This document shows positions 5,606 to 30,179 of a stretch of DNA of 33,663 nt, one piece after another. The stretch comes from a virus (Duplodnaviria > Heunggongvirae > Uroviricota > Caudoviricetes). The position numbers and the translations under genes are program-made. The first letter of the stretch is position 1, and every line of letters begins with the position of its first letter. The stretch is from positions 1-33,663 of IMG/VR virus record IMGVR_UViG_3300045988_122351. One strand, written 5' to 3'. The notes beneath the pieces are model-generated. The model was not told the DNA's origin. It searched no databases and worked only from the letters and a program-made list of their open reading frames with translations.

Positions 5606-6796
5606 TTAATTGCTGTTAACCGAGGTGACCAGATTTGCCAGGTATTTATCGGTAATACGCTGGCGCAGGGTCAGGTTTTCAAGAGGAGGCACCGGTGTAT
5701 AGTCGTAGTCGATATACAGTTTTCCGGCCTTGAGGGTTTCCGCATCGTTGGATTCTTCGCTGAACCAGCAGGTCGCATCCACGATATAGCCGTTTGTTTT
5801 CAGCTCACGGAATTTGGCATTGATGCCGTCAACGATGTCGCGAATCAGCGTTGCGGTGATGGGCTTGTCCACCGCCCACATGTGCGCCTCAGCCATCGTG
5901 TCGGCCATCACCTGCGCGGTGCGGGTGTAGTTTTCAAAGAGGAACAGCGGGTCATCAGAGCAGGTACGGTTACCCCAGAATCGGAAACCGTCGCGGCGAA
6001 TCAGCGTAGTGACGCCTGACTCGTTAAGCAGGTCAGCATCGGTGCCGGACTCCTGCAAATCCCAGAATACAGATGCGCTGATGCCGGTAACACCGTTTAC
6101 CCCGACGTTGGACAGCGTTTTATGCCAGCCCTGCTCCTGGTCGATTTTAGCGCGCAGACCCAGCGCACGGGCGGTGGCATACGCGGTGGCGGTGGTACTG
6201 GTGACCGTATCCCATGCGAGGAAATCCGGCCAGATGACCATCAGCTCACGCTGGCTGAAATTCTGGCGGTAGGCTTTCACCTCGGAAATGGTCTTACAGC
6301 CCCATGCGCTGATATATCCGAAAGCGCGCAGCTTCTGACAGACGGATGCCAGTGCAACAGCCACCTCTTTGGTATCCAGTCCCGGCACACCGAGAATACG
6401 CGGTTTAACACCGGTTACCGACTCCGCCGCCAGCAGGGCTTTTAGTCCGGTGTACTGACCGTTTTCGTCGGTGGTGCCGATGATATTGGAAACGGTCTGC
6501 GCGAGTTTCGTTTCCTCGTCATCACCGGTGCCGTCTTCCACGCGCACGACAACGGTGACCGGTTTTGACTGGTCAGCGATGGCCTGCAACGATGCCGCCA
6601 GCGTGCCTTTTTTACCGGCCTTTGCAATTGCGCTTTGCACATTGGTAATCAGCACCGGTTTATTGAGGGGGAAGGTTTCCGCATCCGCATCGCTGGCCGT
6701 GCAGACCATGCCGACAATGGCAGTGGATACGGTGGAAATGACGCGGGTGCCGTCGTTAATCTCCAGCACCTGCACGCCATGATGATAGTCACTCAT
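5606..6796 (-). CDS. FI: Contractile tail sheath protein FI (396 aa)
   Basis: 396-aa ORF heading the FI-FII-E-T-U-D operon. Confidence 0.9.
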   Translation of the reverse strand: MSDYHHGVQVLEINDGTRVISTVSTAIVGMVCTASDADAETFPLNKPVLITNVQSAIAKAGKKGTLAASLQAIADQSKPVTVVVRVEDGTGDDEETKLAQTVSNIIGTTDENGQYTGLKALLAAESVTGVKPRILGVPGLDTKEVAVALASVCQKLRAFGYISAWGCKTISEVKAYRQNFSQRELMVIWPDFLAWDTVTSTTATAYATARALGLRAKIDQEQGWHKTLSNVGVNGVTGISASVFWDLQESGTDADLLNESGVTTLIRRDGFRFWGNRTCSDDPLFLFENYTRTAQVMADTMAEAHMWAVDKPITATLIRDIVDGINAKFRELKTNGYIVDATCWFSEESNDAETLKAGKLYIDYDYTPVPPLENLTLRQRITDKYLANLVTSVNSN

Positions 6797-6893
6797 CCGT
6801 TTAACTCCGTGGTTAATGGGTGCAACTATTTTCTGTTGTGCAGAGCATAAGACGCTATTTGACCTGGCTGGTCAGTGGATGAAACAACAGATA

Positions 6894-6919
6894 AAGAAAA
6901 GGCGGGCAATTCGCCCGCC
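6894..6919 (-). terminator. Hairpin terminator between cargo island 1 and FI
   Basis: Stem ggcgggc (6901..6907) / gcccgcc (6913..6919), loop aattc; on the minus strand followed by TTTTCTTT. Confidence 0.5.
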
Positions 6920-6975
6920 TGTCCTGATTTGTACTCACTCATTTTCCGCCTGACAATTTACATAGCCCAAATGCT

Positions 6976-6998
6976 ATCAAATCTGACAGTCTGCTTTG
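6976..6998. repeat. Site A: atcaaatctgacagtctgctttg, one of three related putative recombination sites
   Basis: 21/23 identity with 9286..9308 (direct); 16/16 identity of 6980..6995 with the reverse complement of 9414..9429 (inverted). Confidence 0.7.
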
Positions 6999-7126
6999 AG
7001 CGAAAAGTGGACATTAGAGTTACAAAAGCAAGTTTAAATCATCCAAAATATTACAATGTCCTTATCTATCTGATATCGTTATGATAAAAAGCTCCTGAAT
7101 ATAATCGATAGTAGGTGGTTATTTCC

Positions 7127-7504
7127 ATGAAATCAATTTTAGAGGTTTTTACTCAAGGAAATACTAAAGAAAAACTGGCTGTTATCGCCGATCTCACAAC
7201 CATTGCGGGAATATCGATTGCAACTATTATTGCTGGTTTGTTAACCCTAGTTGCAAAAACAGATAAACTAGATATTGGAAATCTGTTTGGAGTTGTCATA
7301 ATATCTCTGCTCGGATTGGCTGGTGTTTGCTGTTTTGTGGCCTTATTTATTTGGGTTATAACCCAAATGTCTAAACCATGGGGAACACCTCGGGGGGTTC
7401 AGCCCTTAGTTAAGTGTGCTATTTCCCTTATCTTTATCTGTATGTTTTTACTGGCTGTCTTTACATTTTATGAGTTTATTTCTTCGATGAGCATACGCTA
7501 TTGA
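7127..7504 (+). CDS. Small AT-rich membrane protein, about 3 predicted TM helices (125 aa); function unknown
   Basis: ORF 7115..7504; start moved to ATG 7127 after SD-like taggtgg (7112..7118); long hydrophobic stretches; low GC. Confidence 0.6.
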   Translation: MKSILEVFTQGNTKEKLAVIADLTTIAGISIATIIAGLLTLVAKTDKLDIGNLFGVVIISLLGLAGVCCFVALFIWVITQMSKPWGTPRGVQPLVKCAISLIFICMFLLAVFTFYEFISSMSIRY

Positions 7505-7526
7505 ATATAAAATCAGCCCCCATAAC

Positions 7527-8111
7527 TTAAAAGAGACCTTCTATATCGACTTCAATGCCCAAATAACGGACTGTGCTTTCCAGTTTCTTATGGCCCAACA
7601 GAAGTTGGATCACCCGGAGACTCTTGGTTTTCTTGTAGATTAAGTAAGGTTTTGTTCTTCTCATGGAATGTGTGCTGTACAGCGAATCTTCGAGACCAAG
7701 CTTTTCTACCCACCCATGAAAAATTCGGTTGTATTGCCGGGTTGATATATGGTGGTTAGTTCCGACCCGAGAGCGGAACAGGAAGCCTTTACTATGCAAG
7801 TTGCCGAGCTTTATCAATGCAGTAACCGCTTCCCTTGTCCCTTTGGTTATCTCAAATTGGACAGGGCTGCCGGTTTTCTGTTGCAACACCGTTGCTCTGC
7901 TTGAGACAGAACTGCCATATGCAGCATCTGATACTTTGAGTTTGACCAAATCACAGCCCCGTAGCTTAGTGTCCAAAGCCATGTTGAACAGAGCTAGATC
8001 GCGTGTTTTACCTTCCAACTCAAGTCTAATCCGGATCCCCCAGATATGAGATATCTGAAGTGGCCTTTTTTGACCGATGGTACGGTCTTTATTCCACGGT
8101 GACGTTTTCAT
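7527..8111 (-). CDS. Small tyrosine site-specific recombinase, catalytic domain only, FimB/FimE-sized (194 aa)
   Basis: Motifs in order: LRGCDL (Arg), HSMRRT (H-x-x-R), LLGH, VRY (Tyr); parallels the FimE layout. Start set at ATG 8111 with AGGAG 8 nt upstream; the track's TTG at 8213 would give 228 aa. Confidence 0.7.
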   Translation of the reverse strand: MKTSPWNKDRTIGQKRPLQISHIWGIRIRLELEGKTRDLALFNMALDTKLRGCDLVKLKVSDAAYGSSVSSRATVLQQKTGSPVQFEITKGTREAVTALIKLGNLHSKGFLFRSRVGTNHHISTRQYNRIFHGWVEKLGLEDSLYSTHSMRRTKPYLIYKKTKSLRVIQLLLGHKKLESTVRYLGIEVDIEGLF

Positions 8112-8217
8112 ATTCAAATCTCCTGCAATGTGGGAGATTTGAGTATGGTTGTCTCTCAAGAGCGAAAATAAGTCAACTATCACTAGTTGTTGCGCATGTA
8201 CGTATTCTGTCAATTAA

Positions 8218-9060
8218 TTATTGACAATCATCAATTCTGGAATGATCAAAATCATCATATCGAATTATAGTCTGGTTGACTGTATCTATTGTTGGTGTCA
8301 TTTCTGTTATAATATCCTGATAACCTAAAGAGTTAAATACATTTACTAAGGCCTCACACCGAAGGGCCGTAGCAATTACAAAATTATAAATTGCCAGCCG
8401 TTTATTTTCTTGTTTAACTGCAAGAATGAATTCGATAGCAGTATTTTCATCACTTTGGATTGCATTATATAGAGATACTATATTTACCATATCATCAGAG
8501 AATGTATGTATTGAATCACAAAGGGGAACGTAATGGGCATGATAGTGTGTTTCCCAGCCAATTAATTCAAAAAGTTTTCTGGTTCCTGGATATTCAGGTG
8601 TATTTGGCCACAATCTATTAAATAGATCAGTTAGTTCTTTTCCCATGCGAATCCTTTCATTTGCTGCTGGATTAGTCATTCCTTTGGATTTTAAACACTC
8701 CAGCCACCGTTTTCCATTACTATGAACTAATTTCTTACTAGCCTTGAGTAATGCTTGTGCATTTTCGCCATCATCTATTGCTATATAAAATTGATTGGCA
8801 GCCTGTTCTATTATAACCCTAGCTAATACTTCCGATGCTGAAAAGGCTCCTATATTCAAAGAAGAGATAGCCTGATTACTAAGTTCATTCAGTACATTAA
8901 AGTACTGTAAGACCATCAATTTTTGTTCCACACCCTTTAGGTTGTCTATTTTATTTTTATGCTCCTCAAATTTTGCATGGATATATTTATTTATCGCGGC
9001 TATTTTTTTTACATCTTCGTCAAGATCAAACGGGCAACGTCCAAACAATTCTTTTTTCAT
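8218..9060 (-). CDS. Hypothetical protein (280 aa), His-rich patch ETHYHAHYVPLCDSIH; function unknown
   Basis: Clean 280-aa ORF, ATG at 9060 with AGGAG 6-7 nt upstream; AT-rich; immediately upstream of the recombinase on the same strand. Confidence 0.65.
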   Translation of the reverse strand: MKKELFGRCPFDLDEDVKKIAAINKYIHAKFEEHKNKIDNLKGVEQKLMVLQYFNVLNELSNQAISSLNIGAFSASEVLARVIIEQAANQFYIAIDDGENAQALLKASKKLVHSNGKRWLECLKSKGMTNPAANERIRMGKELTDLFNRLWPNTPEYPGTRKLFELIGWETHYHAHYVPLCDSIHTFSDDMVNIVSLYNAIQSDENTAIEFILAVKQENKRLAIYNFVIATALRCEALVNVFNSLGYQDIITEMTPTIDTVNQTIIRYDDFDHSRIDDCQ

Positions 9061-9285
9061 ATATTTCTCCTGTTGTACAAGCTTCCATACGTTGGCAGAT
9101 TATACACTGAAGATTACCTATAAATAGCTGTGCGGGATAGCAGATCAGTGCAAGAAGTACAACCAAGTGAACTGTGCGTATTCAGATACCTGGCCTAACG
9201 TTCGCGATAGCCGTCCCCTGCACGAAGCCATATATTAGATGTATTAGCTCAGACCTTATCTGACAGGTTGAGTAGGTAGAATCTA

Positions 9286-9308
9286 ATCAAAGCTGACAGT
9301 CTGGTTTG
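9286..9308. repeat. Site B: atcaaagctgacagtctggtttg, direct copy of site A
   Basis: 21/23 match to 6976..6998; a partial copy atctgacag lies 27 bp upstream at 9258..9266. Confidence 0.7.
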
Positions 9309-9413
9309 GACTGTGAGTTCAACTGATGGATGCAACACACAGCGATCTACGGACATTACTAGCATAGCTGTGTATTAATCATCGGGAAGCAGGTCAGTCC
9401 GCTCCTAGCACAG

Positions 9414-9429
9414 AGCAGACTGTCAGATT
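9414..9429. repeat. Site C: agcagactgtcagatt, inverted copy of the site A/B core
   Basis: Reverse complement aatctgacagtctgct equals 6980..6995 exactly; with site B it brackets a 105-bp segment. Confidence 0.7.
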
Positions 9430-9481
9430 AGGCTTTACTCTGTGCTATAGATACGTTAGCTCACTCCAGAGATCATACAAC

Positions 9482-10009
9482 TTATTGCGGCATTTCCGGC
9501 CATTCAGGATTTGCAGGATCCACACGGCTGACCAGAACACTGTAGCGTTCCCATGCTTCCAGTCGGCTACGCTCCTCATCTGTTGCCATATTCAGTCTGA
9601 CAGAGCGTTCCAGTGGCTGAATGATAGTTTCAGCTTCGGAAAGCAAAGCTGACTTCTGTAATTCCGCCAGTTGCAGCTGTTCGTCTGCCGTATAAATCCG
9701 CTTAATCACGGCACCATCCTTAAACATCCATTTACCTGAGTCATCAGCACGTCGGTTGGCGGTAATATCAGGAACCTCGACAACGCTAAAACCTTCAGGG
9801 TTGAGCGTTGAAGCATCTCTGGTGATGCCGACAATTATATTATTCTCATCGTAAACAATCTTTATCGTGTCTTCCTGAAAATTACTTACTTCCTCATACC
9901 AGTTTTTTCCCTCTTCGGACCATAACCAGATAACATCAAAATTTTTTGTCAGTTGATATTGGGCAACAGTTTTTGGATTACCCGCAGTAATATTTTTTAA
10001 ATGCTGCAT
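9482..10009 (-). CDS. G: Tail fiber assembly protein G (175 aa)
   Basis: 175-aa ORF immediately downstream of H; length and position as in P2. Confidence 0.8.
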
Positions 10010-15174: not shown

Positions 15175-15307
15175 AAGATCTAGCATGCTGCTGAGAACTG
15201 ATGAGAACAATAAAAGAGTGTTTTTCTAAGGTTGACACAACACTCCATTTGAAGTGAATATAATGATTACTTAACTGGCAAAAAAACATCCTCACTAATT
15301 GGAGCCA

Positions 15308-16399
15308 ATGGATACACGCATGTCAGACATTCTAATTACTTATGATGAACGGAAAGATAAATTTGAGTCCTATGCCCTTACTCTTAAATCGTTATTAACC
15401 ACGTTAATTCGCAATGAAAAAATTTCAATTCACTCACTTGAATCAAGAGTTAAAACAAAAAAAAGCCTTGAAGGTAAGATTAATAAAAAGGGAAAATACA
15501 AGTCTATAGATGATATTACTGATATCGTTGGTATCAGGATCATCACACATTATGCTGATGATGTTGATAAGATAGCTGCTATAGTTGAAAAGGAGTTCAC
15601 CATTGACCAAGAGAACTCTATTGATAAAAGAACCTCAATTGCGCCTGATAAATTTGGTTACCTATCACTTCATTATATAGTAACTTTAAACTCAACCAGA
15701 ACAAACTTAAAAGAATATGAAGTATATAAAAACATCAAAGCCGAATTACAAATACGATCAATCCTTCAGCATGCCTGGGCGGAGATTGAACACGACATTG
15801 GTTATAAGTCGGCCACAGGACTGCCTAATGAAATAAGAAGATACTTTTCACGCTTAGCTGGTCTTTTAGAAATGGCCGATGATGAATTTATTAAAATCAG
15901 AAAAAAGATTTCTGAACGGCAGAAAGAGGTTGCAAAAGAACTAGAGCAAGGAACTAGTGATTCAGTTTTAGATATTTTCACTTTGGATGAGTTCTTAAAC
16001 ACAAGTCGAATTATGAGTGAACTTTCAGAAGAGATAAAAGAAAAAACAGGAATCACAGTACATGGCCGATACAAGGATAAAGATTTGGGATACCTACTAA
16101 ATGGTTTAAACCTAGCCAACATAACTACAATAGAACAACTCAATCAAAAACTCTCACAAATGAAAAAGCAGATCGTAGATAGAATATTCTGCTTCGGAGA
16201 ACCATTTATTAATTATTGCAGAGAAACCCCCATGCCAAAAGAAGCTCTTTTGAGTTATTTATGTCAAATTATCGTTGCGTTTCAAAACTCACCTTCGTTA
16301 GAATCTGAATTTAATAACAAAGCAGGTTTAAATCTGAAAAACAGCAATATCTCCGATTTTTTCTCGAATATAAGAGAAAACATAAGCACACAACCTTAG
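15308..16399 (+). CDS. RelA/SpoT-family nucleotidyltransferase (small alarmone synthetase-like, toxSAS), probable single-gene CapRel-like fused toxin-antitoxin (about 363 aa)
   Basis: Synthetase motifs in order: SRVKTKKSLEGKI, DIVGIRIIT, FGYLSLHY, ELQIRSILQHAWAEIEHDIGYK; about 170-aa C-terminal extension; no room for a separate antitoxin gene. Start uncertain (TTG 15299, ATG 15308, ATG 15320). Confidence 0.75.
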   Translation: MDTRMSDILITYDERKDKFESYALTLKSLLTTLIRNEKISIHSLESRVKTKKSLEGKINKKGKYKSIDDITDIVGIRIITHYADDVDKIAAIVEKEFTIDQENSIDKRTSIAPDKFGYLSLHYIVTLNSTRTNLKEYEVYKNIKAELQIRSILQHAWAEIEHDIGYKSATGLPNEIRRYFSRLAGLLEMADDEFIKIRKKISERQKEVAKELEQGTSDSVLDIFTLDEFLNTSRIMSELSEEIKEKTGITVHGRYKDKDLGYLLNGLNLANITTIEQLNQKLSQMKKQIVDRIFCFGEPFINYCRETPMPKEALLSYLCQIIVAFQNSPSLESEFNNKAGLNLKNSNISDFFSNIRENISTQP

Positions 16400-25975: not shown

Positions 25976-26599
25976 TCATACTAACTTGTCTATTGAAATT
26001 ACAAGCTTTTCGATGAAGTTCTTAACTACTACCATATCATCACCAGTTATGGGCCAAGGCTCACGAGGTGTAATTGGTTGCATGTCACCTTCATGTGCTA
26101 TCTTATTACGTCGATCAACAATCGCATTCAGATTTAATCTCAGTGACTTAGATTCTAAATCGGCATTACTATTCGTAGCACCTTGATCTATTGCAACCTC
26201 TCTCCACAAGGAAATATTTGAAATCAGCCTAATTCCATCAGCAATAGATTCACTGGTTTGATACGTTTGAATCCCAAGTTGTCGCCTAACTTCTAAGTCA
26301 TAAATTTGGTCACGAGTCCAAGCGTTGTTAAAAATATTATTCATAACACTATGGGGCATTGTAAACTTATCGTATTTCTGCGTACTAGCCCTCCTTCCCT
26401 GAAAAATCTCAAGCATCCGCTGCGCGACAAGTTCATGAATATATAAATCTAAAGCAGAAACTCTAGCAACCCACTCAGCTCTCAGAATTTCTCGAGAATC
26501 AAATACACTCGAAAAATTAGTAGAAGTATAAGCATATGTCACAGATAACAAATCACATCTAATCCAAGCACGGTCAAATATCGATTTTGGCGTTGACAT
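25976..26599 (-). CDS. Hypothetical protein with C-terminal HEPN-like R-x4-H motif (207 aa); candidate RNase effector
   Basis: Motif VDRRNKIAHEGD near the C-terminus resembles the RNxxxHE signature of HepT-type HEPN proteins; AT-rich; 3 bp after the upstream ATPase gene. Confidence 0.55.
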   Translation of the reverse strand: MSTPKSIFDRAWIRCDLLSVTYAYTSTNFSSVFDSREILRAEWVARVSALDLYIHELVAQRMLEIFQGRRASTQKYDKFTMPHSVMNNIFNNAWTRDQIYDLEVRRQLGIQTYQTSESIADGIRLISNISLWREVAIDQGATNSNADLESKSLRLNLNAIVDRRNKIAHEGDMQPITPREPWPITGDDMVVVKNFIEKLVISIDKLV

Positions 26600-26602
26600 A
26601 CT

Positions 26603-27646
26603 TCAATCTCTTGTCAGGGCGATAACCCTTTCTGCACAAGTGTCAAATGCAGCAGAAAATACAGTCATATTTTTTTCCGTCTGATCCCAAACAGCGCCTT
26701 TCTGACCAGTCTGTTGGGCTGTCAGTGTGTAGACTGGAACTTGAAATTCCTGAGACATAGCAATCAGACTATTGAAATCAGAGACTTCCATTATTGGGTC
26801 AGAAGGAGGCATCCCTGCTTTTTGCTCAAACTCGACTACATCCAACATATCAAACTCAACAAGTTTCGGGATTAGCAAAGAAATTAAGTTATCTCGAAGT
26901 TCATCAATCCATTTTTGGAAGGCCGCAGATGCCTGACCATTGCGTGGTCTATACTTTTGGACGATAGAACCTATAAATTTCACGTTAGACTCAGGGAATG
27001 GATAGTTAGCATTCTGGAGCAACTCCATTCGTGAAGCCATGTTTGCCCATTGTTTCCATCTTGGTAAAGTACGAGCGAGAGAAGAAAGGGCCATCGACGA
27101 GAAATAATCAGGATGAAGAGGTACGATAAAATAATCTGATGTAGTTAAAATGTTTTGGTTCAATGGCCCCAGGCTCGGGCTCATATCAACAATCACATAA
27201 TCTGCATTTACTTTTTCAGCAGTTAGGTCAAACAAATACCTGATAGAACCAGGAAGGTTTTTAAGTGGTAATAATGACCCCGTTAATTCTTGAGCTACAC
27301 CTAATGTAGTTTCATACTCAGAAAGCCCAATATGGCCGGCAAGAAGATGCAAGTTTGCATTACCCTCGATATCAAACACTTCTGCAGGTTCAATCGCACT
27401 TGGTTTAGACTCAAAAGCAGGAGAAAGGGCGTCACGAATATTATTGGCTACTGGTTGATTATAAATCTGTTCTAAATCCGCAATGCCTCTAAATCCAAGA
27501 ATCATTCCGGTAAGATTACATTGTGGATCACAATCAGCTAGCAAAACCTTATGACCTTTCTCAGCCAACTTCCAACCTAAGTTAAACGCAGTAGTAGTTT
27601 TACTTACTCCACCCTTATGATTAAACAAACAGATTACCTTCGCCAT
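26603..27646 (-). CDS. ParA/MinD-family P-loop ATPase with C-terminal extension (347 aa)
   Basis: Deviant Walker A KGGVSKTT at residues 11-18, DCDPQCN motif, Walker B-like YVIVDMSP; about 100 extra C-terminal residues; no adjacent ParB-like gene. Confidence 0.75.
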   Translation of the reverse strand: MAKVICLFNHKGGVSKTTTAFNLGWKLAEKGHKVLLADCDPQCNLTGMILGFRGIADLEQIYNQPVANNIRDALSPAFESKPSAIEPAEVFDIEGNANLHLLAGHIGLSEYETTLGVAQELTGSLLPLKNLPGSIRYLFDLTAEKVNADYVIVDMSPSLGPLNQNILTTSDYFIVPLHPDYFSSMALSSLARTLPRWKQWANMASRMELLQNANYPFPESNVKFIGSIVQKYRPRNGQASAAFQKWIDELRDNLISLLIPKLVEFDMLDVVEFEQKAGMPPSDPIMEVSDFNSLIAMSQEFQVPVYTLTAQQTGQKGAVWDQTEKNMTVFSAAFDTCAERVIALTRD

Positions 27647-27844: not shown

Positions 27845-29914
27845 TTAAAATCGCTCACCACTTCTTTGCTGTCGATATCGCCGCTGTATATGGCATTTCA
27901 AAACTTCCCTAAATACCAACACAGCTTCGGGGTCATCCCATGCTATAACACCGTCATCAACCAGATTAAGCACGGCTGCAGCATGTTCAGAAGGTGTGGG
28001 AGCCGGTAACGAAGTATCACTGCCGGTGAGCTTTCCACAGTTATTGACAGGACTCCGAGGCGCGGCGATGCCGCTTTTTAAAGTCAAAGGCTCAACGACC
28101 GGAACTTTCGGCACAATGCGCCAGTCCGTCGTTCTGGTGATATGAATATGACGCGCGCCGAGATGCGGCGCGTAAATGCCGACCACTCTCTCAACTTCTT
28201 CCTCGTACTCGTTAACGTCATCCGACGGGCTACGGGCAACCCTGACAGTCTGACAATCGCGCGGGACATTTGCCCCACCCTGCGCGCTGATATACAACGC
28301 AAAATCACCACTGTCTGCGGCAGCGCGAGCAGCCTCGACGCGTTCGTCAAACTCATCAGCAATACTGACGCCGCGAGGCAATTTGCGTAGTTCACGGTAA
28401 GCCCCCATTGTCGGCAGTCCAACCGTTTTAAATTGCGGGATGCGCCACGTTGACGCCCATGCGGTAACAGCCGCGGCAGTATCTTTAAGCGGCTTACCGG
28501 TATCGTTATCGAGCTGACCATCCAGTGCATAGCCGTCGATATTTTTTGAAATGTATTTCGCGATATATCCCGCAGCACCGCCCCGGTTAAGGTGTTTTGC
28601 CTGAAAACGGTTTCGCGCAGCTCCTCTTTCATCGCCATCCTCTTTGAGCGCATAGCGACGCATGATTTCGATAATCTGGTTACGCTGGCGCGGATTACAA
28701 AAAAGCATCATATGCCAGTGCGGCGTTCCGTCGTGGTGTGGCTCGACGACACGCAAACCGTAGACCTGTAAATCATTATCCTTGAATGCCGTGCGCATCA
28801 GGCTCCAGATACGGCAGAGATAACGCTGCGCATCCTTTGGATTAAATGCCTCATCGTTCCAGCCGTGATTAAGCTGCACGGTTTTACTTTCGCCTTTTCC
28901 GACCTGACGTGTCGGGTGATACTTTGACGGCGCGGTCAGCGTGATAAACATCCCCACATCACCCTCTGCGGCGGCGTAACGCTCAATACCGGCAATGGTG
29001 TTCATCAGCTCCATCCGGCGAATTTCAGGATTAGAAATACTGCCCATCACCTTACTGATAAGGTCGATGCGCTCGCCGGTTTCCCTGTTTTCGAGGTCAC
29101 ACGATTTAAGAAATTCCAGATTTGCCTGGCGGCGCGCACGCACATCACGAATGGCATGTTTACTGGCATAAGGAGAACGGTCTTTATTGACCTCCCCGAC
29201 AGCTATCAGTAACGCCTCATGCCAGCGCATACGCTGGCCTTTAAGCTGATGAGTCCACCACTCATCGTTAAACAGGCGGGCAATGGCAGAATATGCCTGC
29301 CTCGTGGTCATCTGTCCTTTACGGTATTTTTTCCAGTAGAGAGGGGAAATATTGAAAGCACGTGCAGCGCCAGCAACATGACCATACAGGTGAGCCTGCG
29401 CCTCATCCGTAAACAGCGATTCTTTTTCGCCATGCGCATCCACCCAAGCATCGCTGAGTTCCTCATACATCATGAAAAGCTGCGATGAGATACGGGCGGC
29501 AAACTTTTTCAGCTCCTTGTCATTCATTCCCGGCAGTCGCGCATAGTGGTCACGCTCTGCCAGAAACAGCAACGACGCGTCGGTGTTCATTTCATGGCGC
29601 TGATTCACACGCTCAATGCGCGGCCATAAACGACGCTGAAAAGTGGATGTGAGGAAATAAAACCCGTGCACCGGGCTTTTATTGCGCCGGATGTAGTCAT
29701 AGCGTGAAGTAAACAGCGAGCGCAAAAAGTAAGGCAGGCGGTTAATCGTGGATAAAACACCTTGCACCTGACGCATCTCGTCACGTGTAAGGGGTCTTTC
29801 GCGCCCGACAGCCTCGCGTGGCGCGTTCCATGCATAAGCACCGGTAAACGCCTTACCGGTGCCTGCAGCAAATGCTGACGGAGGGACAAAACGCCCGGAG
29901 GCTTTAACGGCCAT
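27845..29914 (-). CDS. A: Replication initiation protein A, HUH rolling-circle endonuclease (689 aa as called)
   Basis: ORF 27845..29956; start set at MAVKASGRF...; HUH-type motif TPHWHMMLF and paired tyrosines YIAKYISK; C-terminus shorter than I recall for P2 A. Confidence 0.85.
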   Translation of the reverse strand: MAVKASGRFVPPSAFAAGTGKAFTGAYAWNAPREAVGRERPLTRDEMRQVQGVLSTINRLPYFLRSLFTSRYDYIRRNKSPVHGFYFLTSTFQRRLWPRIERVNQRHEMNTDASLLFLAERDHYARLPGMNDKELKKFAARISSQLFMMYEELSDAWVDAHGEKESLFTDEAQAHLYGHVAGAARAFNISPLYWKKYRKGQMTTRQAYSAIARLFNDEWWTHQLKGQRMRWHEALLIAVGEVNKDRSPYASKHAIRDVRARRQANLEFLKSCDLENRETGERIDLISKVMGSISNPEIRRMELMNTIAGIERYAAAEGDVGMFITLTAPSKYHPTRQVGKGESKTVQLNHGWNDEAFNPKDAQRYLCRIWSLMRTAFKDNDLQVYGLRVVEPHHDGTPHWHMMLFCNPRQRNQIIEIMRRYALKEDGDERGAARNRFQAKHLNRGGAAGYIAKYISKNIDGYALDGQLDNDTGKPLKDTAAAVTAWASTWRIPQFKTVGLPTMGAYRELRKLPRGVSIADEFDERVEAARAAADSGDFALYISAQGGANVPRDCQTVRVARSPSDDVNEYEEEVERVVGIYAPHLGARHIHITRTTDWRIVPKVPVVEPLTLKSGIAAPRSPVNNCGKLTGSDTSLPAPTPSEHAAAVLNLVDDGVIAWDDPEAVLVFREVLKCHIQRRYRQQRSGERF

Positions 29915-30179
29915 ATGAGCCAAAAGCCTCTGAACAACGCCTGCTGAGTTGCTCAACCTGCGCGTTTAAATCAGCAAAAGACTTTGCGCTTCCGGTCAGA
30001 ATATCGTGATGCATCAGGCCGGAAACGAGCTGGCTTAATTTCGGGTAATAACCAACCACCGCCAGCCATTCCTGACCGGCGTTTTTACCGCTTTCCGCTC
30101 TCTTTTTCTCGTGGAGAATAAACTGAAAGCTGTCACTGGTAACGACATAACGTTCGCCAATTTCAATACGAAAACTCAT
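29904..30179 (-). CDS. Hypothetical early-operon protein (91 aa), P2 orf83 position
   Basis: ORF just upstream of A with short overlap; position as in the P2 early operon. Confidence 0.55.
   Translation of the reverse strand: MSFRIEIGERYVVTSDSFQFILHEKKRAESGKNAGQEWLAVVGYYPKLSQLVSGLMHHDILTGSAKSFADLNAQVEQLSRRCSEAFGSYGR

Follow-up and report, generated by a model that had tools for sequence, protein, structure and literature searches.

The window analysed here, a 33,663-nucleotide stretch of viral DNA (IMG/VR record IMGVR_UViG_3300045988_122351, positions 1 to 33,663), is a complete P2-like (Peduovirus) prophage of Escherichia coli, and its variable Z/fun locus carries a small gene for an integral inner-membrane protein of an unnamed family. 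The gene is genuine, lies in a self-contained moron cassette of 557 bp that originally included a bidirectional terminator, and is independent of the tyrosine recombinase gene beside it, which does not control it. The explanation favoured here, tentatively, is that of an autonomous inner-membrane moron, expressed in the lysogen and acting against other phages. The structural part of this explanation—a real gene, a membrane protein, an autonomous cassette, no control by the recombinase—is held firmly; the functional part is a guess by association, and a role in superinfection exclusion or abortive infection is a reasonable guess.

An initial annotation, made from the sequence alone, had described the element as an AT-rich open reading frame (ORF) of 125 codons on the strand opposite the recombinase, with the two stops 22 bp apart, and this description is confirmed. 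The gap spans positions 7505–7526 and the recombinase stop codon occupies 7527–7529, while the GC content of the membrane gene is 37.3%, compared with 56% in the adjacent tail-sheath gene and 51% in the window. The ATG start is common to all homologues and to the RefSeq annotation, and a Shine–Dalgarno sequence, AGGTGG, ends 8 nt before it. A GTG at 7115 would extend the ORF to 129 residues, but falls within that Shine–Dalgarno sequence (7113–7118).

The protein matches the phage family PHROG 4155 (E = 2e-82), with residues 1–125 falling on profile positions 5–129 of 129. A protein search recovered 21 clusters at ≥58% identity from Enterobacterales, and a profile search of 1.84 billion representative proteins yielded 56 family members of 112–135 residues, matched end to end; seven fragments and one longer protein fall outside this size range, and those members that bear a name are called ‘hypothetical’. 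When a narrower family alignment was scanned against metagenomes, six loci only were obtained. Ratios of nonsynonymous to synonymous substitution rates (dN/dS), calculated pairwise for 18 alleles, are mostly 0.15–0.45, and the conserved motif and the length persist across the family down to 25%–30% identity. The family core is the N-terminal stretch G-x3-(E/D)(R/K)L-A-x2-A-D-x2-S-I-x-G-V-S, in which D22, G28, and S30 are nearly invariant. The gene is present in 64 of 5426 complete E. coli genomes and in one of 185,579 species-representative genomes. No homologue was found among 50,697 deposited phage genomes, P2 included, nor in the deposited plasmid collection, and the membrane protein is therefore not Fun(Z).

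The expectation of about three hydrophobic helices was likewise upheld by the topology prediction that the initial annotation had proposed as a check, which returned three transmembrane (TM) helices in an N-in/C-out arrangement. Kyte–Doolittle peaks above 1.6 occur at residues 17–43, 50–80, and 91–119, and an AlphaFold2 model built from a 37-sequence alignment places helices at 13–44, 50–82, and 91–120, in addition to a short N-terminal helix (mean predicted local distance difference test score [pLDDT] 86; predicted template modelling score 0.61). This model replaced a poor one obtained with 20 close sequences (pLDDT 63). Lysine and arginine residues average 5.8 on the N terminus and loop 2 versus 1.6 on loop 1 and the C terminus, a bias seen in 37 of 37 members; hence the predicted N-in/C-out topology, in which the N terminus and second loop are cytoplasmic and about 8 plus 6 residues are periplasmic. 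Hydrophobic segments, helical structure, and positive-inside bias together describe an integral three-helix protein whose predicted location is the inner membrane. A holin was considered and rejected: the C-terminal tail is about six residues long with one basic residue, and so is not a charged tail, and the position of the gene, between the sheath gene and the tail-fibre-assembly gene, is outside the lysis cassette.

The gene is contained in a 2.4-kb insert with the minus-strand tape-measure, tail-tube, and tail-sheath genes (5606–6796) on one side and the tail-fibre-assembly gene (9482–10009), together with tail-fibre genes, on the other. The flanks of the insert are 92%–95% identical to P2, Wphi, L-413C, and many Peduovirus genomes, whereas the intervening 2.4 kb is unmatched; this places the membrane gene in the Z/fun variable locus, at which other P2-like phages carry different cargo. 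The small membrane protein therefore does stand at a phage moron locus, as the initial annotation had supposed. Morons lying between inverted repeats at the P2 Z/fun locus were reportedly described by Nilsson, Karlsson, and Haggard-Ljungquist in 2004 (GenBank AJ512683 and AJ512685). In AJ512683, the lysogenic ORF is annotated with its own −35, −10, and ribosome-binding site and with left and right inverted repeats. The present insert shares with these morons its position, with the tail-fibre-assembly gene G on one side and the sheath gene FI on the other, an AT-rich composition, expression signals of its own, an orientation against the late genes, and the same inverted repeats, the inner ends of which are 24-bp sites here termed type A and type B; the cargo, however, differs. 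The type-A site of the window forms the inner terminus of the inverted repeat of the P2 Z region and matches the start of the AJ512683 ‘right inverted repeat’, and the type-B site matches the end of the ‘left inverted repeat’. Nilsson et al. 2004, the source of these records, is cited in Rousset et al. (2022; PMC9122126).

Both kinds of site have palindromic 7-bp arms, with the consensus GTCYGCT-TTGAGCGARR-AGYGGAC for type A and GTCCGCT-YCTGGCACAR-AGCGGAC for type B. In BLAST comparisons with loci of other genomes (numbered L002 to L061 here), homology ends sharply at 6989 and at 7543–7545 in E. coli, Serratia, Enterobacter, and Klebsiella. The cassette of 557 bp (6989–7545) thus delimited consists of a 24-bp type-A site, a conserved upstream block, the Shine–Dalgarno sequence, and the ORF, and the type-A site recurs at cassette starts in L002, L003, L012, L016, L026, L058, and L061. 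The block CAATATCCTTATCTATCTGAT..GTTATGATAAAA..AGGTGG..ATG (about 70 bp of upstream sequence) is kept even in homologues of 57%–75% protein identity, and this conservation suggests that it is a promoter. Intact copies end in a hairpin, UUAAAAGAGACCUU-CUAU-AAGGUCUCUUUUAA (−17.1 kcal/mol, z = −5.8), which has A and U tracts on either side and constitutes a bidirectional terminator. In the window, 7545 is the last base in common with intact cassettes, and the remainder of the terminator 3′ arm has been lost, along with the ATPase gene that follows it in full-length relatives (described below). Deviant GC content, cargo of a variable locus, a conserved upstream block, and a terminator are, as far as sequence can tell, the marks of a prophage moron. 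An Rfam scan of 6700–9600 gave no match. Coordinates of the features are collected in Table 1.

Table 1. Features of the Z/fun insert, numbered from the first base of the window.
Feature	Position	Strand	Description
Type-A 24-bp site	6989–7012	.	GTCTGCT-TTGAGCGAAA-AGTGGAC; left boundary of the cassette; palindromic 7-bp arms
Upstream promoter/leader block (putative)	7013–7126	+	TATAAT 7100–7105; Shine–Dalgarno AGGTGG 7113–7118
Membrane-protein gene	7127–7504	+	125 residues; ATG start; three helices; PHROG 4155; no Pfam family
Residual 3′ flank	7505–7545	+	Terminator 5′ arm 7527–7540, loop 7541–7544, first base of 3′ arm 7545
Small tyrosine recombinase gene, 3′-truncated	7527–8111 (ORF 7527–8213)	−	Phage_integrase PF00589, 1.4e-17
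Inverted repeat, 15-nt arms	8108–8148	.	Covers the recombinase start codon; also kept in L003 and L010
Degenerate type-A site	8151–8174	.	GTCTCTC-AAGAGCGAAA-ATAAGTC; just upstream of the recombinase gene
DUF5677 protein gene	8218–9060	−	280 residues; PHROG 4167; fills the remainder of the hotspot
Type-B 24-bp site	9397–9420	.	GTCCGCT-CCTAGCACAG-AGCAGAC; right boundary of the hotspot insert; inverted relative to type A

The close spacing of the membrane and recombinase genes is a product of how the two modules were joined. The recombinase module (7545–8165) is 89%–91% identical to copies in L003 and L010. It is also found apart from the membrane gene, in lambdoid prophages and other settings, and intact recombinase copies are present in 905 of the 5426 complete E. 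coli genomes. Normal copies are 200 residues long and end in ...GIEVDDALEISESIEV; the window copy ends in ...GIEVDIEGLF, its last 11 codons having given way to five codons plus a stop that the 5′ arm of the terminator of the membrane cassette supplies. This truncated form keeps the catalytic-tyrosine region (TVRYLG). The break is at 7545, in the terminator loop, with recombinase module from 7546 on. Since the terminator is cut in its loop and the recombinase is truncated, the 22-bp spacing is a fusion scar. In L026 and L027, the order is membrane gene, ATPase, recombinase, and a single deletion in such an order would yield the structure of the window. As the membrane gene lacks a terminator here, it and the recombinase and DUF5677 genes could transcribe into each other; this would be the only regulatory link between them, and an accidental one. 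At the other end of the recombinase gene, RNA folding of the inverted repeat over its start codon gives −17.4 kcal/mol (z = −5.3) in a structure that would bury the AUG, and this hairpin might block translation or bind a protein. The degenerate type-A site beyond it corresponds in position to GTCCCTT-ATGAGCGAGG-AGTGGAC in L003.

The initial annotation had gone further and suggested that the membrane protein may be the effector whose expression the recombinase cassette controls, and this part of it found no support. Control of the gene as a phase-variable effector would have in its favour a weak similarity of the recombinase to DNA invertases (NCBIfam 5.9e-4, far under the cut-off), the inverted sites of 24–33 bp that flank the 2.4-kb insert, and a lost terminator that makes convergent transcription possible. 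The only bracketing inverted repeats, however, are those at 6980–7012 and 9397–9429, which contain the A and B sites and flank the whole insert, and a synthetic-junction search found the junction expected from A/B inversion in none of the 5426 complete E. coli genomes. A single orientation is shared by the 10 viral-contig copies and every genomic copy inspected. The gene and its upstream block occur without the recombinase, the block is the same whether or not the recombinase is present, and the stop codons are only 22 bp apart; there is thus no room for an invertible promoter. A fim-type invertible switch was accordingly rejected, and with the recombinase itself 3′-truncated by the join, any such control of the membrane gene is very improbable.

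The cassette is found without the recombinase in E. coli, Serratia, Klebsiella, and one Enterobacter-type metagenome contig. The full unit is 2.5 kb long and runs from site A through the membrane gene, the shared terminator, and a convergent gene for a protein of 556 residues to a type-B site; Serratia, Enterobacter, Klebsiella, and a contig without assignment (L026) keep it end to end at 88%–99% identity. Loci with this unit are L009, L010, L012, L025, and L026 (for example, L012 167–2665). The 556-residue protein is a ‘P-loop ATPase, Sll1717 family’ with Walker A and Walker B motifs, an nSTAND1 score at threshold, and weak PADLOC matches.

In E. coli, four configurations were distinguished. 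The arrangement of the window occurs in about 36 genomes, including S88, the type strain ATCC 11775, and avian pathogenic E. coli (APEC) O1/O2 strains. In about eight genomes, the membrane gene is the sole gene in the P2 Z/fun locus and has on its 3′ side a remnant of 290 bp whose translation gives the final 53–59 residues of the ATPase. A third configuration, in at least 17 genomes, has this remnant-bearing cassette beside a separate DUF6650 cassette, with a B-18 bp-A junction. The fourth is a minimal A...B cassette of 640 bp in the lambdoid prophage of one genome, located between hokD and a DUF977 gene and adjoining a PD-T7-1-like gene. E. coli copies retain 45–290 bp of the 3′ end of the ATPase gene. 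Three different deletions removed that gene (full-cassette positions 988–2587, positions 771–2633, and a break at 720), the membrane ORF being intact each time, and overall this ORF is intact in 63 of the 64 E. coli carriers. Autonomy of the membrane gene is therefore supported by the minimal cassette, by the separate nature of the neighbouring DUF6650 cassette, by the upstream block shared across genera, and by an ORF that has survived three deletions.

The company kept by relatives varies from one genome to another. Yersinia neighbours are DUF2971-like and DUF4145 genes, Klebsiella neighbours are HEPN_AbiV and relaxase genes, and those in L026 are SymE/HicB. Distant family members adjoin AbiJ-like, Fic, RelA_SpoT-like, and DUF6602 genes. 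In Pectobacterium zantedeschiae (L004/L028, 6001–11607), the membrane gene lies beside two adjacent tyrosine recombinase genes and a gene for a protein of 561 residues, an arrangement that resembles recombinase-trio mobile islands: a different vehicle with the same cargo. There is no conserved partner, and the surroundings are consistently accessory or defence-type; the defence-type genes around relatives include a PD-T7-1 homologue, HEPN_AbiV, AbiJ-like, SymE, a STAND-like ATPase, and DUF4145.

The adjacency of the recombinase goes back to a deletion or illegitimate join by which the convergent Sll1717 ATPase gene was lost. The membrane gene is read against the tail genes, and it is therefore presumably expressed in the lysogen from its own promoter and not as part of the late operon. 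Its product would act alone at the inner membrane, where it might keep incoming genomes out or trigger abortive infection as a membrane effector, and its contact surfaces may be the cytoplasmic N-terminal motif (G-x3-E/D-R/K-L-A-x2-A-D) and the small-residue face of helix 1. Known superinfection-exclusion membrane proteins of prophages and phages include HK97 gp15, P22 SieA, and T4 Imm. By analogy with these, the protein may be regarded as a small inner-membrane product of a moron that is set among tail genes, has a promoter and a terminator to itself, and is plausibly expressed in the lysogen; on the side of the differences, no sequence or fold similarity to them was found, and almost no periplasmic exposure is predicted.

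Several observations weigh against an autonomous anti-phage moron. In four genera, the membrane gene and the ATPase are tightly linked and the two halves show equal DNA divergence; the membrane protein may therefore need that partner. The predicted topology leaves almost nothing exposed to the periplasm, which would be unexpected for an exclusion protein that meets phage from outside. A sigma-70 consensus scan called no plus-strand promoter upstream of the gene, and the window equivalent of the terminator is without structure, so that the gene faces convergent transcription. Pfam, NCBIfam, and PADLOC returned nothing for the protein or for 37 family members; a PDB sequence search gave chance TM matches only and no solved relative, and fold searches (viral and PDB) gave generic helical bundles only. 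No annotated PHROG was matched, and PADLOC, Pfam, NCBIfam, and the fold searches yielded no homology to any characterised exclusion protein. Among orphaned E. coli copies, at very low divergence, dN/dS is higher (0.42–0.64), and in one copy that is the sole gene of its Z/fun locus, an IS5 element interrupts the membrane gene.

The first of these points leads to the main rival account, in which the protein is an orphaned membrane component—effector, anchor, or regulator—of a two-gene defence-type cassette with the Sll1717 ATPase, and the window copy is a relic that by itself does little or nothing. Conservation of the 2.5-kb unit, the lack of a B-A junction between the two genes, their equal divergence, the ATPase 3′ remnants in E. 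coli, and the nSTAND1 and PADLOC matches of the ATPase all agree with it. Two-gene systems that pair a TM protein with a HAD hydrolase or with a reverse transcriptase–nitrilase are described for P4/P2 hotspots by Rousset et al. (2022; PMC9122126), who remark that the TM proteins of such systems are believed to trigger cell suicide. The resemblance extends to a small TM protein, an enzyme or nucleoside triphosphatase partner, and a prophage hotspot; the ATPase pairing, however, is convergent instead of operonic, with separate promoters, belongs to a single cassette lineage, and is missing from the window. The ATPase family also extends well beyond this cassette, with at least 963 proteins in hosts that range from Pseudomonas to Vibrio, and homologues of the ATPase at 87%, 82%, 56%, and 54% identity have no membrane gene nearby. 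In all, four genera have both genes in a single 2.5-kb cassette, and the genes are unlinked in the five ATPase contexts and about eight membrane-gene contexts sampled, and the more distant membrane-protein homologues have other neighbours. An obligate ATPase partner is thus unsupported by the ATPase homologues sampled, and with the ORF intact through three independent ATPase deletions and in nearly all E. coli carriers, the orphaned-component account is considered rather unlikely. A separate reading, that the gene is a hitch-hiking remnant devoid of current function that persists only because the deletions are recent, would fit the lost terminator, the IS-disrupted copy, the raised dN/dS among close E. 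coli copies, and the rarity of the gene. It is, though, opposed by purifying selection over deep comparisons, by a motif and length kept at 25%–30% identity, and by the same intact ORF in three independently derived ATPase-less configurations, and is judged distinctly unlikely.

Less probable still is an orphan immunity protein, travelling as mobile cargo, that protects against a membrane-damaging toxin of competitors; the toxin might be a colicin or microcin of the pore-forming kind, a contact-dependent effector, or a type VI effector. E1-type colicin immunity proteins are about 113–125 residues long with three TM helices in an N-in/C-out arrangement, and in colicin operons the immunity gene is convergent to its neighbour; the membrane protein may be likened to them in size, helix number, topology, and the convergence of its gene. 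Some of the loci hold genes of toxin/immunity type (a DUF8093 nuclease or phospholipase alongside ankyrin proteins), and an Imm39 gene lies near one ATPase homologue. Against this, hhalign comparison with a verified colicin E1 immunity protein gave a probability of 0.1%, no colicin-immunity Pfam family was matched, no toxin gene is a consistent neighbour, and the conserved parts are cytoplasmic. Membership of the E1-type family was consequently rejected, there being no colicin gene in the loci examined.

Returning to an autonomous anti-phage moron, the A and B sites allow its vehicle to be considered. Cassettes run from A to B and neighbours are joined by B-18 bp-A, a pattern that recurs wherever the small recombinase is found. 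P2 Z/fun loci, the lambdoid hokD-DUF977 hotspot, and chromosomal islands, among them those of Nissle 1917, all have the sites, whose orientation with respect to the gene for the 200-residue tyrosine recombinase never varies; example loci are L002 5050–5115, L003 3377–8787, L058 3900–8191, and L061 4976–8795. In L003, the order is the recombinase with an A-type site at its 5′ end, a PD-T7-1 homologue, B-18-A, another gene, and B. It is possible, although doubtful, that the membrane gene is cargo of an undescribed integron-like exchange system of Enterobacterales, formed by the 200-residue recombinase and the A/B sites, and is itself a new single-gene anti-phage function at the level of the membrane. 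Literature searches found no description of the membrane gene or of an A/B-site system in the searchable literature, which is not proof of novelty.

The likeness to integrons lies in discrete cassettes with putatively recombining sites that are short imperfect palindromes, in a defence-rich cargo, and in an array whose neighbour is a divergent gene for a tyrosine recombinase, itself preceded by a site at the 5′ end. The recombinase, however, has only 200 residues and scores 17.8–17.9 bits with integron-integrase models that have cut-offs of 265–435, each junction is a B-18 bp-A pair instead of a single attC, and the cassettes appear to have promoters of their own. They are therefore not integron cassettes in the strict sense, there being no IntI-type integrase and the A/B sites not being attC.

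Some further features of these loci were recorded. The PD-T7-1 homologue of L003 (5885–7234, plus strand; PADLOC 7e-157) immediately adjoins the small recombinase of a lambdoid prophage, and in another strain a relative of it with 30% identity lies beside the membrane-gene cassette in the same hotspot (L016 1675–3033, minus strand). In the window, a 49-bp direct repeat of 71% identity (6950–6998 versus 9260–9308) places a copy of P2 left-flank sequence inside the right end of the insert and includes a partial A-like site (9290–9317). With regard to the DUF5677 gene, a 2025 preprint names a DUF5677 gene among candidates that lie near serine recombinases and were picked to be tested against phages.

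The other two low-GC islands of the prophage likewise hold defence-like genes. At 15.0–16.5 kb, a plus-strand gene (15299–16399) encodes a RelA_SpoT-domain protein of 366 residues (Pfam 1.9e-21; PADLOC candidate PDC-S33 1e-16), an alarmone-synthetase-like moron product comparable in size to fused toxin–antitoxin defence proteins. Beside the replication gene A (27845–29956), at the second P2 variable locus in the tin/old position, a minus-strand gene pair (25976–27646) encodes a ParA/MinD-like AAA_31 ATPase (347 residues) and a RiboL-PSP HEPN protein (207 residues). This pair is a candidate two-gene defence system, with weak matches to PADLOC PDC-M28B.

The object itself is an ordinary one, a prophage moron for a small membrane protein of an uncharacterised family, and the greater significance lies in its context. 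Should phage exclusion prove to need this gene only, the P2-like prophages of extraintestinal pathogenic E. coli and APEC (strains S88, ATCC 11775, and APEC O1/O2 relatives) would possess a compact (0.56-kb) single-gene membrane defence. Site-specific recombination was reportedly proposed for the P2 Z region in 2004, and the exchange system, if real, would supply the recombinase for it; the system would then move promoter-bearing defence cassettes among the P2 Z/fun locus, the lambdoid hokD-DUF977 hotspot, and chromosomal islands. Sharp module boundaries, recurring A/B sites, and a widespread recombinase thus offer a testable mechanism for the swapping of accessory and defence genes among prophage hotspots.

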